Source: Nitrospirota bacterium
Lineage (GTDB): Bacteria; Nitrospirota; Thermodesulfovibrionia; Thermodesulfovibrionales; Dissulfurispiraceae
Length of the DNA stretch: 13,782 nucleotides
Reading direction: 5' to 3'
NCBI GenBank assembly: GCA_040758355.1
Contig: JBFLWF010000046.1
Span: forward strand, 1-13,782
Shown here: positions 6,103-13,635 of the stretch, in pieces
Layout: every line of letters begins with the position of its first letter
How positions within the stretch are numbered: the stretch's first letter is position 1
Translations under genes and position numbers: made by a program
Notes under the pieces: generated by a model
The model's database searches: none
Told to the model about the DNA's origin: nothing
What the model saw: only the letters and a program-made list of their open reading frames with translations

Positions 6103-6188
6103 AGTTAATGAGTTAATGAGTTGAAGGGTGAATGAGTGAAAGGAGATTTTAACCTCATATGCTCATTTACCCATATACTCATATACTA
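6103..6188. repeat. Inverted octamer array (AGTTAATG-type)n ... (CTCATATA-type)n between glnB and glnA
   Basis: Left AGTTAATG AGTTAATG AGTTGAAG GGTGAATG AGTGAAAG. Right CTCATATG CTCATTTA CCCATATA CTCATATA CTA. Confidence 0.8.
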
Positions 6189-7573: not shown

Positions 7574-8878
7574 CTACAACGTATACCCGCTCTCTCCATG
7601 CTGCGATATGTCAAGACCAACAACCTCTGACTCGTCATCAACCCTCAGCCCTATGGTCTTATCAAGCACCTTCAACATTATTGCTGTCACAATGAATGAG
7701 TATACAACCGTAACCGCAATGGCAATCAACTGAGAAACAAACAGCTTTGGATTCCCGAAGAACAGGCCGTCAGCGCCTGCTGGATTTATGGCCTTCTGTG
7801 CAAAAAGTCCCAAGGCGAGGGTTCCAAGGATTCCTCCGATTCCGTGAACACCGAAGGCGTCGAGGGAGTCGTCATATCCGAGGCGGTTTTTTATGTTCAG
7901 CGATATATAACAAACAGTGCCGGCAGCCAAACCTATAATCAGCGCAGACATGGGGCCTACAAAACCGGAGGCAGGCGTTATTGTTGCGAGTCCTGCAATT
8001 GCGCCTGTGGCAGCGCCGAACATTGTGGGCTTGCCCCTGTGAAGCCACTCGATAATCACCCATATTAAAGTCGCTGCTACTGCAGATATATGGGTGACCA
8101 CAAAGGTCATGGCGCTCAATGCACCGGAGGAAAGGGCACTGCCTGCATTAAATCCAAACCAGCCGAACCACAAAAGTCCAGCACCAAGCACGGTCATTGG
8201 CAGGTTGTGCGGATAAATTGCTTCATGCATATACCCCTTTCTCTTTCCGATGATTATCGCAGCAGCAAGTGCGGATATGCCCGATGTTATATGCACAACA
8301 ATACCTCCTGCAAAATCCAATACGCCCATATTCTTGAGCCATCCGCCGTTGCCCCATATCCAATGGGCAACAGGGTTGTATACTATTGTCGACCACAATA
8401 CAGTAAACAATAAAAATGCAGAAAACTTCATCCTCTCAGCAAAGGCGCCGGTAATCAATGCAGGTGTGATAACGGCAAACATCGCCTGATATATCATGAA
8501 TGCTATATGCGGAACGGTAGGGGCATAATCGGGATTAGGTTCAACACCAACTCCCCTTAATCCAAGCCAGTCAAGGCTTCCTATCATTCCGCTTACATCC
8601 GGGCTAAAGGAGAGGCTGTAGCCAAAGAGTATCCACTGCACGCTGACGACAGCTATGGCAACGAAACTCTGCATTATTGTGCCGAGGACATTCTTTCTCC
8701 TGACCATCCCGCCATAGAACATGGCAAGACCGGGTGTCATGAGCATTACAAGGGCAGCGGACAAAAGGACAAAGGCTGTGTCGCCGGCGTCTATTTTGCC
8801 CTCCGTCTGGGCATACACATTAAACGGGATTGAAAGCATAGCCGCCAAGAGTGACATCAAAAAGACCTTGTTTTTCAT
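7574..8878 (-). CDS. amtB: Ammonium transporter (Amt/AmtB family), third copy in transcription order
   Basis: Signal peptide; LVMLMTPGLAMFYGG, DFAGGIVVH (His1), [18 protein letters not shown] (His2), C-terminal GLD...HGESGY. ATG at 8878 is preferred over TTG at 8884 because AGGAG lies 7 nt upstream. Confidence 0.96.
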   Translation of the reverse strand: MKNKVFLMSLLAAMLSIPFNVYAQTEGKIDAGDTAFVLLSAALVMLMTPGLAMFYGGMVRRKNVLGTIMQSFVAIAVVSVQWILFGYSLSFSPDVSGMIGSLDWLGLRGVGVEPNPDYAPTVPHIAFMIYQAMFAVITPALITGAFAERMKFSAFLLFTVLWSTIVYNPVAHWIWGNGGWLKNMGVLDFAGGIVVHITSGISALAAAIIIGKRKGYMHEAIYPHNLPMTVLGAGLLWFGWFGFNAGSALSSGALSAMTFVVTHISAVAATLIWVIIEWLHRGKPTMFGAATGAIAGLATITPASGFVGPMSALIIGLAAGTVCYISLNIKNRLGYDDSLDAFGVHGIGGILGTLALGLFAQKAINPAGADGLFFGNPKLFVSQLIAIAVTVVYSFIVTAIMLKVLDKTIGLRVDDESEVVGLDISQHGESGYTL

Positions 8879-8926
8879 TTGCAATCTCCTTTATTTACCA
8901 TAATCAGCAGCCCAAACACTTACAGC

Positions 8927-9203
8927 AGCAAAGCAGGCATGAGTGAAAAGCCTTTATCAGCGATACCTCATGTGAAAGTGAAAGTGTAAGTGTATGTCTT
9001 ACATTCACATACACATGCACATTCACATATTGCATTCAGCAGTACAAACAGGCATATAATAATCTCATCGCATTGATAAAGGCTTTGAAGCCGTGCCTGC
9101 TTCGCTTGATTACGATTATGTAATTTACAAAAATACTCGACAGCCGTCAGGCAATGGTATGGTCTCGGAGCGACCATACCATTGCCTGACAGCCATGTCC
9201 AGC
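8927..9203 (-). ncRNA. Putative structured RNA / long 5' leader of amt transcribed from a sigma54 promoter
   Basis: A perfect 19-bp stem (9146-9164/9172-9190) extends to 25 bp with G-U pairs on the minus strand. A ~38-bp imperfect stem (8927-8964/9067-9106) encloses the hexamer hairpin 8970-9028. The structure starts just after the predicted TSS (~9203). Confidence 0.5.
8970..9028. repeat. Inverted hexamer array, same family as 810-882
   Basis: ATGTGAA AGTGAA AGTGTA AGTGTA TGT-CTT-ACA TTCACA TACACA TGCACA TTCACAT. Confidence 0.87.
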
Positions 9204-9213
9204 CTTCAATATA

Positions 9214-9229
9214 AGCCAAAAACATGCCA
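9214..9229 (-). promoter_or_regulatory. sigma54 (-24/-12) promoter upstream of the structured leader and amt
   Basis: Minus strand TGGCATGTTTTTGGCT (GG-N10-GC), followed by TATAT as at 12227-12242. A partial IHF-like AATCAAAGACATC lies at 9235-9247. Confidence 0.78.
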
Positions 9230-9267: not shown

Positions 9268-9308
9268 GAAAAAAATGGAAATCCTACAATTTTGTAGGAT
9301 TTCCATTT
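9268..9308 (-). terminator. Long palindrome with U-tract: candidate intrinsic terminator of the glnK operon that also contains a CCTACA-N4-TGTAGG site
   Basis: AAATGGAAATCCTACAA-TT-TTGTAGGATTTCCATTT (9273-9308, perfect 17-bp arms), followed on the minus strand by a T run. About 80 bp downstream of the glnK stop. Confidence 0.6.
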
Positions 9309-9350
9309 CATATCGGCTTTATTATTTTAAAAAACAGGGACTTCTAATTT

Positions 9351-9383
9351 CCTACATTTTTGTAGGAGCTACATTTTTGTAGG
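9351..9383. promoter_or_regulatory. Tandem palindromic enhancer-like sites (C/G)CTACA-N4-TGTAGG
   Basis: CCTACATTTTTGTAGG (9351-9366) and GCTACATTTTTGTAGG (9368-9383). A third copy is at 9283-9298, and the same motif precedes the 12227-12242 promoter. Confidence 0.75.
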
Positions 9384-9387
9384 AAAA

Positions 9388-9818
<431 letters not shown>

Positions 9819-9820
<2 letters not shown>

Positions 9821-11144
9821 ACAGGTTATACGCCTTTTCTCCATGCTGGCTCTCATCAAGCCCTTCTATCTCTTCCTCAACATCGACCCTGAGACCAACA
9901 AAAGCCTTTATTATCATGAAAATTACCGCAGTAACAACAGCCGTATATACAATAGTCACTCCAGCAGCTATGATCTGGGTCCAGAGTTGTCCGGGGTTGC
10001 CGTACAGAAGTCCCTTGCCTGCCTCGTTTATTGATGGGTCTGCGAATATGCCGGTCAGGATCGCACCGAGTGTTCCGGCTACTCCATGTATTCCGAATGC
10101 ATCGAGTGTATCATCATACCCAAGTTTTGGCTTCATCACTGCAACAGATAAGAATGAGACTATACCTGCTGCAATTCCTATGATTAGGGCGCCGGTTATA
10201 TTCACAAAACCAGCTGCAGGTGTTATGGCAACAAGACCGGCAACAGCACCCGATGCAAGACCGAGGACCGTAGGCTTCTTTGAATGCATCCACTCTGTAA
10301 ACATCCATGCAACCGCCGCAACTGCAGTAGCTGTGTTGGTATTGATAAAGGCTGCTCCTGCAAGTCCGTTTGCTGCAAGCGCAGAGCCTGCATTAAACCC
10401 AAACCACCCGAACCAGAGAAGCCCTGCTCCTGTTACTACAAGGGTGAGATTATTAGGGATGAGGGTCATCTCGCGTCTCTTGCCCAAAATTAAAGCTCCT
10501 ACGAGGGCTGCGATACCTGCATTGATATGGACTACAGTACCGCCTGCAAAGTCCAGCGCACCAAGTTTTGCAAGGAATCCGCCTCCCCATACCCAGTGGG
10601 CAACAGGCAGATATGCAAATGTCATCCAAAGCATCGAGAAGATCAACCATGCAGAGAACTTCATCCTTTCTATATATGCGCCGCTTGCAAGGGCAACGGT
10701 AATTGCTGCAAAGGTCAACTGATAAACGATGAATATGTATTCAGGTATCGTCTTTGCTGCATCCGCAATGCTGTTAACACCGACTCCTGCAAGGAGAAGC
10801 TTTGCGGGGCTGCCTATGATTCCAGAGATGTCTGTTCCAAATGCAAAGGTATAGCCGTAGATTACCCATAAAACGCTCACGATACAAAATGTCACAAAGG
10901 ACATTGCAATAGTGTTAAGGGTGTCTTTGCGTTTTGAAAGTCCTCCGTAAAATAGCGCCAGTCCCGGTATTGTCATAAGCATAACAAGGGCAGTTGCCAC
11001 AATCATCCACGCTGTATCCCCTGTATCGATCTTAAGCGGAGCCGGAGCAGCAGGGGCCTGCTCAGCCAACCCCTCTTCTGCAAACGCAAGACCTGCAAAA
11101 CACAGCAAACCAATTATCATCAAAATACTTAATAGCCTTTTCAT
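9819..11144 (-). CDS. amtB: Ammonium transporter (Amt/AmtB family), second copy, divergent from the other two
   Basis: Signal peptide; [59 protein letters not shown]. Confidence 0.96.
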
Positions 11145-11156
11145 AGTTTCCTCCTG

Positions 11157-11975
11157 TTAAAAGCTGAATGTCAGATTTATACCTGTCACAAAGGTATCAT
11201 CCAGCTTTCCGTTATGGTTATATGAGTTTCCATCCACTGTCTTTTTTGCCTTGCTCGAAAGAGGGAACCAGTACTGTGCAACAGGCTGTACCGACAGATT
11301 CTTTGCTATTGGAATTGTGAAACCGGCCTTTACCATACCGTCATGGAATGCACTGTATTTCTTGCCGGTATAATCGCCTGTCGATGATTCGTAAGTCTTC
11401 CAGTAGTCATCGCTGCCCACAAAGTATCCGGCGGATGCGCCGAGGTCAAGGGTTATATCCTTATACACCGTTATCGAATGCGACAGGGAAAGGTTGAAAT
11501 AGGTGCCGGGATATGATGTTATGTCCCTGTACACAGACAGCGTAGGCTTCAAAAATGTGTCATAGCTTGCGCTCACAAACAATTCCTCGGTATCGCCGGG
11601 AGGATTATTATACTTCATGGCGTAGTAGATATAGCCCGCTGTAAGACTGAGCTTATCAATAACATAAGTGTAACTCAATGTCAGGTCTGTCTCGTTAAAG
11701 CTCTTGTGCCCGGCCTTGTCAGGCACAAAGGACTGTGTAGCATGCTCATCACTGTCAATGTTGCTCCATAAGCTGCCTGAAAAACCCTTATAGGAAACAC
11801 TCAAGGCAGGTTGAATGACGATGCTGTGGGAGCCTATCTCGTAGCCTCTGAATATATACCTGTTAAATACACCAACAGATGCACTGCCTGTTACCTTATC
11901 CTCCGCATAAGTACCGGCTGTTGAAAAGCCAAGCACCAGAAACATTGCCAGAACCAGAACCTTTAAACCTTTCAT
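11157..11975 (-). CDS. Putative outer-membrane beta-barrel protein (TorF/TIGR02001-like putative porin)
   Basis: Signal peptide MKGLKVLVLAMFLVLGFSTAGTYA; YIFRG, IQPALSVSY, ETDLTLSY, LTAGYIYY; C-terminal beta-signal VTGINLTFSF. ATG at 11975 has GGAGGTG upstream, so it is preferred over 12011. Confidence 0.75.
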   Translation of the reverse strand: MKGLKVLVLAMFLVLGFSTAGTYAEDKVTGSASVGVFNRYIFRGYEIGSHSIVIQPALSVSYKGFSGSLWSNIDSDEHATQSFVPDKAGHKSFNETDLTLSYTYVIDKLSLTAGYIYYAMKYNNPPGDTEELFVSASYDTFLKPTLSVYRDITSYPGTYFNLSLSHSITVYKDITLDLGASAGYFVGSDDYWKTYESSTGDYTGKKYSAFHDGMVKAGFTIPIAKNLSVQPVAQYWFPLSSKAKKTVDGNSYNHNGKLDDTFVTGINLTFSF

Positions 11976-12017
11976 CACAACACCTCCGAATATTTTTTGT
12001 TTCAAAGTCATGCCTCA

Positions 12018-12209
12018 TTACTCCGTAAGTTGTTTACTGTCTTTATCCTCCTCCCTTCCGATTCCGTATTTTTTGATCTTGTATCCGATCATCCTTTCGG
12101 TTATGCCGAGCTTTCTTGCTGCCCTCGCCATAACCCAATCACATTCCTTGAGGGCGTTGATTATCTCTTCCCTTTCAATCTCTTTTACCCTATCCTTTAA
12201 AGAACCCAT
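12018..12209 (-). CDS. Stand-alone Fis-type (HTH_8) DNA-binding protein resembling the C-terminal domain of NifA-like sigma54 activators
   Basis: 63 aa MGSLKDRVKEIEREEIINALKECDWVMARAARKLGITERMIGYKIKKYGI..., matching the NifA C-terminal pattern ER..I..AL....WV.A.AAR.LG.T.R..GY.I.KY.I. GAGGTG lies 6 nt before ATG 12209. No AAA+ domain upstream. Confidence 0.85.
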   Translation of the reverse strand: MGSLKDRVKEIEREEIINALKECDWVMARAARKLGITERMIGYKIKKYGIGREEDKDSKQLTE

Positions 12210-12226
12210 TGTCTTCACCTCATATA

Positions 12227-12242
12227 AGCCAGAATCGTGCCA
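12227..12242 (-). promoter_or_regulatory. sigma54 (-24/-12) promoter for HTH-porin-amt-glnK
   Basis: Minus strand TGGCACGATTCTGGCT (TGGCACG -24 box, GG-N10-GC). Confidence 0.82.
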
Positions 12243-12247
12243 GCCTG

Positions 12248-12260
12248 CAAGTCATTGATT
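12248..12260 (-). promoter_or_regulatory. IHF-binding site candidate
   Basis: Minus strand AATCAATGACTTG matches WATCAA-N4-TTR exactly and lies between the enhancer sites and the -24 box. Confidence 0.65.
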
Positions 12261-12283
12261 TATAATGGAATCTTGGCAGAAAA

Positions 12284-12320
12284 GTTGCTACATTTTTGTA
12301 TGTTGCTACATTTTTGTATG
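12284..12320. promoter_or_regulatory. Tandem enhancer-like sites GCTACA-N4-TGTATG (perfect 18-bp duplication)
   Basis: GTTGCTACATTTTTGTAT occurs at 12284-12301 and 12302-12319; same core as 9283-9298, 9351-9366 and 9368-9383. Confidence 0.75.
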
Positions 12321-12324
12321 ACTT

Positions 12325-13635
12325 TTATAGCATATAACCGCTTTCTCCATGCTGGGACTGGTCGAGTCCGATAAGCTCCTGCTCCTCATCAACCCTGAGA
12401 CCTACCATCCTGTCAACGATCTTGAGAATAATCAGTGTGGCCACAAAGACAAATACATAGGTCGCGGTTACAGCAATGGCCTGAATGCCGAGAAGGGGCG
12501 GGTTTCCGAAAAATAAACCATTCTTGCCTGCCGGGTTTATTGCTGTCGATGCAAAAAGCCCTGTTGCCAGCGCACCCCATGTTCCTCCAACTCCGTGAAT
12601 ACCGAGGACATCGAGGGAATCATCATAGCCGAGTCTCTGCTTTAGGTTTACAGCTATATAACAGAATACGCCTGCACCTATTCCAATCAGTATTGACGAT
12701 AGAGGGCCGACAAACCCTGCTGCCGGTGTTATGGCAACAAGCCCTGCCACTGCTCCGCTGACTGCGCCGAGGGCAGTTGGTCTGCCCCTCTGAATCCATT
12801 CAACAGCGAGCCAGCTCATTGCAGCAGCGCCAGTAGCGGTATTTGTGGTGACAAATGCAACAGAGGCAAGCCCTCCTGATGTAAGGGCGCTGCCTGCATT
12901 AAATCCGAACCACCCGAACCACAGGAGCGCTGCTCCGAGGATGGTCATTGGTAAGTTATGCGGGGGCATTGCCTCCATTCCATAACCCCGTCTCTTTCCT
13001 ATTACAAATACTGCAGTAATGGCAGCAATGGCTGAATTGATGTGAACAACCGTGCCTCCTGCAAAATCAAGGGCGCCCAGTGTGCCTCCTATCCATCCGC
13101 CTCCCCATACCCAGTGGGCCAATGGAGAATAGACAAATGTGAGCCAGAGGACTGAAAAGAGGATTAATGCAGAAAACTTCATTCTCTCGGCAAATGCCCC
13201 TGTAATAAGGGCAGGTGTGATGATGGCAAACATCCCCTGAAACATCATGAAGATGAGATGCGGGATTGTGGGCGCAAGAGGCGCTGACTCCTGACCAACA
13301 CCCTTAAGACCGAGCCATTCAAGACCGCCGATAATGCCCCATTTGTCAGGGCCGAATGCAAGGGTATATCCCCAGAGAACCCATATAACACTTACAATGC
13401 AAAGGATGGCAAAGCTCTGCATGATTGTGCCGAGGACATTTTTCCTCCTGACCATACCGCCATAAAAGAAGGCAAGCCCGGGGGTCATGAGCATAACAAG
13501 GGCTGTTGAGATAAGCATCCATGCAGTATCACCCGTATCTATCTTCTGCGGAGCCGGCGCTGTTTGCACCTCGGCAAAAGAGACTCCATTCAATGCTAAA
13601 AGACATAATAAAATCATTATTCCTAATCGTTTCAT
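12325..13635 (-). CDS. amtB: Ammonium transporter (Amt/AmtB family), first copy in transcription order
   Basis: Signal peptide; LVMLMTPGLAFFYGG, FQGMF Phe gate, [46 protein letters not shown]. Confidence 0.96.
   Translation of the reverse strand: MKRLGIMILLCLLALNGVSFAEVQTAPAPQKIDTGDTAWMLISTALVMLMTPGLAFFYGGMVRRKNVLGTIMQSFAILCIVSVIWVLWGYTLAFGPDKWGIIGGLEWLGLKGVGQESAPLAPTIPHLIFMMFQGMFAIITPALITGAFAERMKFSALILFSVLWLTFVYSPLAHWVWGGGWIGGTLGALDFAGGTVVHINSAIAAITAVFVIGKRRGYGMEAMPPHNLPMTILGAALLWFGWFGFNAGSALTSGGLASVAFVTTNTATGAAAMSWLAVEWIQRGRPTALGAVSGAVAGLVAITPAAGFVGPLSSILIGIGAGVFCYIAVNLKQRLGYDDSLDVLGIHGVGGTWGALATGLFASTAINPAGKNGLFFGNPPLLGIQAIAVTATYVFVFVATLIILKIVDRMVGLRVDEEQELIGLDQSQHGESGYML

Follow-up and report, generated by a model that had tools for sequence, protein, structure and literature searches.

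The window, by which we mean the whole stretch of DNA analysed (contig G000:C46, 13,782 nt, from a genome of 2.77 Mb and 43.6% G+C), carries a nitrogen island on its minus strand, as judged from the list of open reading frames (ORFs) and Pfam matches. Between the first two amt genes of this island lies a gene for a protein of only 63 residues, hereafter the mini-protein, at the head of an operon. The features with which we are concerned are the following.

13635..12325, minus strand: amt, upstream of the mini-protein gene (Pfam)
12306..12319, minus strand: distal enhancer-like palindrome ATACAAAAATGTAG (TACA-N4-TGTA), centred about -97 from the predicted transcription start
12288..12301, minus strand: proximal enhancer-like palindrome ATACAAAAATGTAG, an exact copy 18 nt from the distal one, centred about -79
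12248..12260, minus strand: match to the IHF consensus, AATCAATGACTTG, between enhancer and promoter (candidate site)
12227..12242, minus strand: predicted sigma-54 promoter TGGCACGATTCTGGCT, GG at -24 and GC at -12
12216..12221, minus strand: Shine-Dalgarno-like GAGGTG, with 6 nt between it and the ATG; the predicted sigma-54 transcription start coincides with it or lies just downstream
12209..12018, minus strand: mini-protein gene, 63 codons plus stop, a stand-alone NifA-type HTH_8 domain
12011..11157, minus strand: second operon gene, porin-like exported protein of 284 aa (weak Gcw_chp match, below the cut-off)
11144..9819, minus strand: third operon gene, Amt ammonium transporter (Pfam E 4.4e-134)
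9726..9388, minus strand: fourth operon gene, GlnK (PII protein; Pfam E 1e-34)
9369-9382, 9352-9365 and 9284-9297, minus strand: three more perfect CTACA-W4-TGTAG palindromes after glnK, in the region 9272..9382
9214..9229, minus strand: second predicted sigma-54 promoter, TGGCATGTTTTTGGCT, before a 332-nt leader and the amt at 8884..7574
8884..7574, minus strand: third amt of the window, behind the second sigma-54 promoter and the 332-nt leader

Further downstream the island includes genes for a class-I amidotransferase and a second PII protein, and glnA. No Rfam family was detected anywhere in the window.

The mini-protein gene and its promoter

The ORF is intact, running on the minus strand from an ATG at 12209 to a stop at 12020-12018. 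The ORF lister places its start at a GTG at 12218 (66 aa), but alignment of the upstream regions of relatives identifies the ATG as the conserved start. Residues 8-48 match positions 2-42 of the 42-position Pfam model HTH_8 (PF02954; E 2.9e-14, 52.9 bits against a cut-off of 22), the other Pfam matches being weaker, overlapping HTH models, and the Pfam scan detected neither GAF nor AAA+ (PF00158) in the ORF. As it lacks PF00158, the AAA+ domain that interacts with sigma-54, the mini-protein is not a bacterial enhancer-binding protein. Its best NCBIfam match is to the last 42 positions (488-529) of the NifA model TIGR01817 (E 1.2e-10, 40.8 bits), far below the whole-protein score of at least 528.85 bits that defines the NifA equivalog; to judge from these matches, it is a paralogue of the NifA C-terminus and not a NifA. 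There was no Fis model among the NCBIfam matches at E ≤ 0.1, and the mini-protein is not assigned to that family.

An AF2 model of the protein is a three-helix bundle (pLDDT 83; helices 4-22, 27-34 and 38-48) followed by a tail that is disordered in the model and variable and charged across the family. The protein opens with the counterpart of Fis helix B, as seen from the model and a Foldseek search, in which the top matches (2m8g, 3e7l/4fth, 4l5e and Fis) were HTH_8 folds at TM 0.64–0.77, with weak E-values (at least 5e-3), as expected for 50 residues. The DNA-binding domains of Nlh2, NtrC1 and NtrC4 (the last also in its DNA complex), as well as Fis, superpose on the model. Only about 105 nt of non-coding sequence separates the ORF from the stop of the upstream amt (12325), thus there is no room upstream for hidden activator coding sequence. 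An earlier note on this DNA, made by inspection of the sequence, had described an intact 63-aa ORF consisting of a Fis-type HTH alone, with the pattern of the C-terminal domain of NifA-type enhancer-binding proteins and no trace of GAF or AAA+ coding sequence before the amt stop, and our analyses uphold this description throughout, HTH_8 being the sole Pfam domain type present and the NifA-type pattern being borne out by both the TIGR01817 and the fold matches.

Upstream of the gene, the two palindromes sit within an exact direct repeat of 2 × 18 nt (12284-12319). The block AATCAATGACTTG fits the IHF consensus, WATCAANNNNTTR, and TGGCACGATTCTGGCT is a predicted sigma-54 promoter of the TGGCAC-N5-TTGC type, conserved in position among relatives, in a genome that carries rpoN (on contig C7) and four genes of the HU/IHF family. 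The motif CTACAWWWWTGTA occurs eight times in the window (five sites, three of them read on both strands) compared to 0.01 expected from 200 shuffles. The arrangement of sigma-54 promoter, IHF site and tandem palindromes proposed in the earlier note is therefore present, as far as sequence can tell, and it is conserved across the class (see below). The same note credited the ORF with a Shine-Dalgarno sequence of its own, which holds in part. GAGGTG does lie 6 nt before the ATG; however, the GC at -12 lies only 18 nt before the ATG, which would put the canonical transcription start about 6–7 nt before it, at or after the Shine-Dalgarno sequence, so that the sigma-54 transcript may lack this sequence, which makes its translation in this genome uncertain. 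The predicted leader is short across loci, with a median of about 13 nt.

The porin-like gene starts 6 nt past the mini-protein stop, which places the two in one operon. The three palindromes after glnK likely serve the next amt unit. One of them (9284-9297) lies within a terminator-like hairpin with a 17-bp stem (9272-9309) that is followed by a T run, and the centre of this hairpin is a perfect enhancer-type palindrome, CCTACAAAATTGTAGG; the terminator and an activator site of the next amt unit may thus be one and the same sequence. The 332-nt leader of that unit (8885-9216, minus strand) follows the second sigma-54 promoter and folds at -137 kcal/mol (z -9.4 relative to shuffles). It opens with a perfect 21-bp stem (9172-9192 and partner), holds short periodic GTGAAA and ACATTC repeat arms, and may be a regulatory leader. 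Short periodic repeats of 6–8 nt also occur between genes at 808-881, 6103-6187 and 9739-9775 (AAAGTG/ACATAC, AGTTAATG/CTCATATA and ATTAAGTC), often as facing arms and of the same kind as those in the amt leader.

Distribution, conserved setting and selection

Homologues in short frames (58–192 aa, 55–100% identity) were found in about 39 of 61 genomes of the same order, including this one, and some of these genomes have two or three copies, each heading its own operon. A database search returned 1420 small-protein clusters at E ≤ 1e-5, annotated only as hypothetical, as 'helix-turn-helix domain-containing' or, automatically, as 'Nif-specific regulatory protein'. A scan of species-representative genomes gave 233 confirmed stretches, the best 80 of which belong to records of Nitrospirota, Thermodesulfovibrionia, Dissulfurispiraceae and Ca. 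Sulfobium, the exceptions being one labelled Acidobacteriota and a few labelled only 'bacterium'. The names carried by close homologues put the window in Thermodesulfovibrionales (phylum Nitrospirota). Sampling of 201 genomes from the phylum gave the short form in 21, every one a member of the class to which the window belongs; the other eight matches were full-length activators. No mini-protein was found in the 10 genomes of family f10 (1.6–2.0 Mb, several of them closed), which may correspond to cultured Thermodesulfovibrio. Most of the genomes are incomplete metagenome-assembled genomes, and 'not found' therefore does not equal absent.

The setting of the gene is conserved along with the gene. 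Among 30 loci (our own and 29 relatives), a porin gene is next in 25 and amt lies within the 1.5-kb flank in 23, with neither present at only one locus. In 68 of the 80 further species, porin, amt, glnK or glnA lies downstream on the same strand; seven of the other 12 have less than 1.4 kb of sequence downstream, and the remaining five have ORFs resembling a porin and an amino-acid permease, which a Pfam scan of one of the five identified as a BBP2 porin and a transporter of the amino-acid-permease family. The HTH-porin-amt-glnK order, the conservation of which the earlier note had singled out for checking, is thus a general feature of these loci. The promoter is equally regular: TGGCAY is present 27–73 nt (median 39) before the start codon in 77 of the 80 species (6/54 controls), while at least one ACA-N4-TGT occurs within 260 nt in 77/80 (3/54 controls) and at least two in 67/80 (1/54 controls). 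The 30 aligned upstream regions share the order of two palindromes about 18 nt apart, an tTAtAAATCAAnnnnTTa block (visible in most of the relatives), the sigma-54 promoter, a Shine-Dalgarno sequence and the ATG, and no second conserved motif was found in them beyond the palindromes, the IHF-like block and the promoter.

The very short predicted leader in this genome would be compatible with a deletion remnant, that is, the decaying end of an activator gene, or with an untranslated 5' region of the operon. Such a reading is at odds with the pattern of substitution, as the median dN/dS over the 50 core codons is 0.11 (75 pairs with 0.2 < dS < 2), and silent sites have reached saturation in 359 of 435 pairs, although protein identity is still 60–90%. 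It is also at odds with the conservation of start and length at all 30 loci examined, with the spread of homologues across the class, and with the lack of activator remnants flanking the gene. The earlier note had named, as grounds for abandoning its proposal, a full-length activator at this position in relatives together with neutral evolution of the fragment; no such activator was found at the position in any relative examined, and the dN/dS comparison, which the note had also suggested, points to purifying selection. On this comparative evidence we regard a dead remnant as extremely improbable and as refuted for practical purposes, and the ORF as a real, conserved gene that is evidently under purifying selection. 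A search for longer forms (16 matches) found no GITERM-type HTH inside a full-length activator. The forms of 121–141 aa look like long gene calls. A 343-aa form, which joins mini-protein and porin in one frame with the porin signal peptide intact, looks artefactual, and a 424-aa form joining mini-protein and Amt looks like an artefact of gene calling or read-through rather than a real fusion.

The full-length activator, its probable palindromes and its reading head

The closest protein to the mini-protein in its own genome is a 511-aa protein with GAF, Sigma54_activat and HTH_8 domains (G000:C68:2093-3628; E 2.8e-11), the other activators of the genome matching at E 1e-4 or worse. The full-length activator that had been expected to be encoded elsewhere is therefore at hand, as a GAF-AAA+-HTH protein with by far the closest HTH. 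There are 30 HTH_8 matches in the genome, 28 of which lie in frames of 336–547 aa. The other short frame (139 aa, G000:C20:40426-40515) overlaps an integrase-core-like transposase fragment on the opposite strand and looks disrupted.

Eight of the eleven best-scoring palindrome sites in the genome are meaningfully placed. Two precede the mini-protein operon, three precede the third amt, two precede nrfH-nrfA on C69, where they are followed by an IHF-like block and TGGCATGGTTTTGGC, and one lies 23 nt before the ATG of the C68 activator; the remaining three (on C8, C20 and C33) are in apparently unrelated contexts. The nrfH-nrfA pair (G000:C69:2108-4204) encodes a NapC/NirT cytochrome and a cytochrome c552 (E 8.8e-132), and given this arrangement of palindromes, IHF-like block and sigma-54 promoter, nitrite ammonification would belong to the NifA-like regulon. 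The genome's own nifH (on C45) has two degenerate copies of the palindrome, a match to the IHF consensus and a perfect TGGCACGGCTGTTGCT sigma-54 promoter. Tandem palindromes were found in 19 of the 61 related genomes, and a reversed control pattern in none.

Two of the related genomes help to assign the palindrome to its probable owner. G039 and G051 have no match to the mini-protein at E ≤ 1e-5, yet they have tandem palindromes and the complete promoter architecture before glnK-amt and glnK-porin-amt, and in G039 before nifH as well, and their activators carry the same GITPRQIGYK helix as the local activator. The palindrome is kept without the mini-protein in these genomes and would therefore be primarily the activator's site. 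We conclude that CTACA-W4-TGTAG is most likely the enhancer of the NifA-like activator, which, from the genes so marked, looks like a general nitrogen regulator here. The palindrome differs from the proteobacterial NifA site, given as TGT-N10-ACA in PMC7294313.

In 21 of the 33 activator genes examined there is an TTTACATTTTTGTAG-type palindrome no more than about 60 nt from the start, and between it and the ATG comes a conserved TTAAACT block, some 8 nt short of the ATG. The region upstream of the local activator gene (G000:C68:3629-3690), like those of its relatives (21/33), is without a Shine-Dalgarno sequence and contains a TTTACA and TTAAACT pair separated by 17–18 nt. This suggests that a leaderless mRNA is made from a -35/-10 pair of the sigma-70 type, and that the palindrome, which lies over the -35 element and spacer, is in a position to serve autorepression. 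We found no link between this palindrome and the mini-protein: it is present in G019, G009 and G017, in which no mini-protein was found, thus the arrangement is not tied to the mini-protein. G039 and G051 are without a palindrome over the activator's own promoter. There was also no trend, among 12 regions (four of them without a pattern match), for the activators of genomes lacking the mini-protein to carry a basic tail like that of the mini-protein.

A comparison of 30 mini-proteins with 33 activator domains indicates how far the two reading heads have diverged. In both sets, seven of the ten positions of the recognition helix, T-x-R-x-I-G-Y-K-x-K, hold the same, essentially unvarying residue. 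The family also has three fixed differences, within the recognition helix or next to it: the second helix begins with M in 29/30 mini-proteins and with Q in 28/33 activators, and within the recognition helix E in 30/30 replaces P in 24/33, and M in 29/30 replaces Q in 33/33. The comparison of recognition helices proposed in the earlier note thus has a mixed outcome, with most of the helix the same as in the activators and three positions fixed differently. By alignment to Fis, the three positions are presumably occupied by DNA-facing residues, in which case specificity or affinity may differ. In another class of the phylum (G081, G063 and G097) a NifA-like gene follows immediately on a PII gene, and its recognition helix, GITPRMIGYK, stands midway between those of the local activator (PRQ) and the mini-protein (ERM). 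These sister-group proteins are full-length activators, and the second Q-to-M change alone is therefore compatible with activator function. A search for the tandem pattern in five sister-group genomes gave chance-like matches, except for one site before the activator gene of f22. In a tree of 136 unique 49-residue domains, which offers too few columns to decide on a single origin, the mini-proteins do not form one clade: the largest pure clade holds 74 of 93 of them and the activators are nested among the rest; the three shared substitutions are the only argument for a single origin of the mini-proteins.

Possible roles of a free DNA-reading head

The reading that we favour, although we hold it tentatively and at a little under an even chance, is that the mini-protein occupies the CTACA-W4-TGTAG enhancer palindromes of the NifA-like activator and so damps activation, as a form of negative feedback. 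Under nitrogen scarcity the activator would bind the tandem palindromes and, with the help of an IHF-type bend, switch on sigma-54 RNA polymerase at the promoter of the mini-protein operon. The mini-protein would be the first product of this transcript and would be made together with Amt and GlnK. Having no GAF or AAA+ domain, and therefore no ATPase, it would be unable to activate transcription and could only occupy DNA, sitting on half-sites or whole palindromes (CCTACAAAAATGTAGG-type DNA), alone or mixed with activator subunits. Fewer activator subunits would then be tethered at the enhancer and hexamer assembly there would be weaker. The palindrome that overlies the promoter of the activator gene may be covered by the mini-protein as well. 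Nitrogen-uptake genes would, as a result, be expressed in a burst that limits itself.

The NifA C-terminal domain reportedly recognises its UAS alone, according to a report of 1988. In published work, the isolated DNA-binding domain of G. diazotrophicus NifA is described as binding its UAS in vitro, as a monomer in solution and with a Kd of about 20 uM, and such domains, which lack 'helix A', are described as not dimerising without DNA (PMC10590331). Such binding is far weaker than that of full activators, so competition by the mini-protein would need either a high copy number or improved binding. Two further points weigh against a simple brake: the presence of two or three copies per genome, each heading its own operon, is not obviously required by a purely global feedback, and the three fixed substitutions together with weak binding by the isolated domain leave room for other roles. 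A more specific form of the proposal, which we consider possible but rather doubtful, is that Thermodesulfovibrionia have a built-in microprotein brake in which the substitutions tune the free copy to outbind the tethered domain at the enhancer and at the nifA promoter, thereby ending the burst.

The same substitutions are open to a different interpretation, in which the duplicated domain acquired a new DNA specificity through the Q-to-M, P-to-E and Q-to-M changes and now acts away from the NifA enhancers, as a repressor induced by nitrogen limitation or as a Fis-like architectural protein. The three differences are conserved in 29–30 of 30 mini-proteins and were therefore selected rather than fixed by drift, and Fis, which descends from an NtrC domain and matches the mini-protein fold at TM about 0.7, already exemplifies a free HTH_8 protein that has taken on a new role. 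However, the alignment of 30 upstream regions yielded no second conserved motif; most of the recognition helix is that of the activator, and one of the three changes occurs in the GITPRMIGYK helix of sister-group activators. On balance we consider retargeting unlikely, although it is the alternative to which we give most weight.

We think it distinctly unlikely that the mini-protein is instead a helper, binding beside or with the activator to stabilise its binding, DNA bending or hexamer assembly in a positive feedback. It is always on the activated transcript and adjoins the IHF-type architecture, and since NifA-type domains bind weakly alone, extra contacts could help. Against this, it lacks the AAA+ and GAF surfaces through which the activator ring could be contacted, and genomes without a detected mini-protein use the same promoter architecture. 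A role off the DNA, with the mini-protein titrating the activator through its DNA-binding domain or binding another protein such as PII/GlnK, would fit both its predicted co-expression with glnK from a shared operon and the classic logic of microProteins, but the basic recognition helix does not vary; this speaks for contact with DNA having been kept and makes titration a distinctly improbable explanation. Negative feedback at the enhancer thus remains the reading that we prefer, at the tentative strength given above.

Several known systems resemble the proposed arrangement in part. The mini-protein has the same three-helix HTH_8 fold as the NifA C-terminal domain (TIGR01817; PDB 2m8g, 9qq6), with 45% identity to 2m8g over 51 aligned columns and a common signature, W-V-x-A-[KR]-A-A...G-I-T-x-R-x-I-G-Y-K-x-K-K-Y. 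Unlike that domain it has a gene and a start codon to itself, with no linker, AAA+ or GAF; it carries M, E and M in place of Q, P and Q; and its predicted promoter is one that the activator would target, not the promoter of the activator gene. Fis is likewise a free-standing HTH_8 protein, and the A/T-rich centre of the palindrome with C/G at ±7 presumably resembles Fis sites. Fis itself is a global nucleoid protein of 98 aa, in which an N-terminal hairpin and an extra helix give a stable dimer, whereas the mini-protein has no match to a Fis model and is the first gene of a sigma-54 nitrogen operon. The proposed outcome, feedback inhibition of an enhancer-binding protein, is the same as for NifL, PspA, FleN and HrpV. 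These proteins act by protein contact on AAA+ or regulatory domains and are unrelated in sequence; the mini-protein copies the activator's DNA-reading head and would act at the DNA. The mini-protein is a single-domain paralogue, as expected of a microProtein-type regulator, and the likeness extends to the eukaryotic microProteins, single-domain paralogues of multidomain transcription factors that are often induced by those factors. Id (with bHLH) and LITTLE ZIPPER (with HD-ZIPIII) keep the dimerisation domain and do not bind DNA, while the mini-protein keeps the DNA-binding domain.

The HTH_8 domain family is known, as is a free HTH_8 protein in the form of Fis. What appears to be new here is that the predicted target operons of the activator open with a gene for a free NifA-type domain. 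A stand-alone NifA-type HTH before amt/glnK, or leading an activator's target operons, was not described in the abstracts and paper passages surveyed, in agreement with the earlier note, which knew of no description of such a microprotein circuit for amt/glnK. A study of nitrogen fixation in a cultured Thermodesulfovibrio mentions only a nifA homologue (PMC12501866).

The very small and easily purified protein, together with a defined 14-bp site, makes a direct test system, and the three fixed substitutions are a natural experiment on the tuning of affinity and specificity in HTH_8 domains. Sigma-54 activators are thought to be controlled via their sensory and ATPase domains or by protein anti-activators. 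If the favoured reading is true, a free DNA-binding domain induced from the activator's own targets adds control at the enhancer itself, a mechanism described so far mainly for eukaryotic microProteins. In the more specific, tuned form of the proposal, no earlier natural antagonist of a sigma-54 activator would have consisted of a DNA-binding domain only. The predicted regulon in this genome comprises nifH, nrfHA, two amt units and nifA itself, and the circuit would explain how a NifA-type activator may govern general nitrogen uptake (amt, glnK, nrfHA and nifH) in a widespread group of subsurface sulfate reducers.
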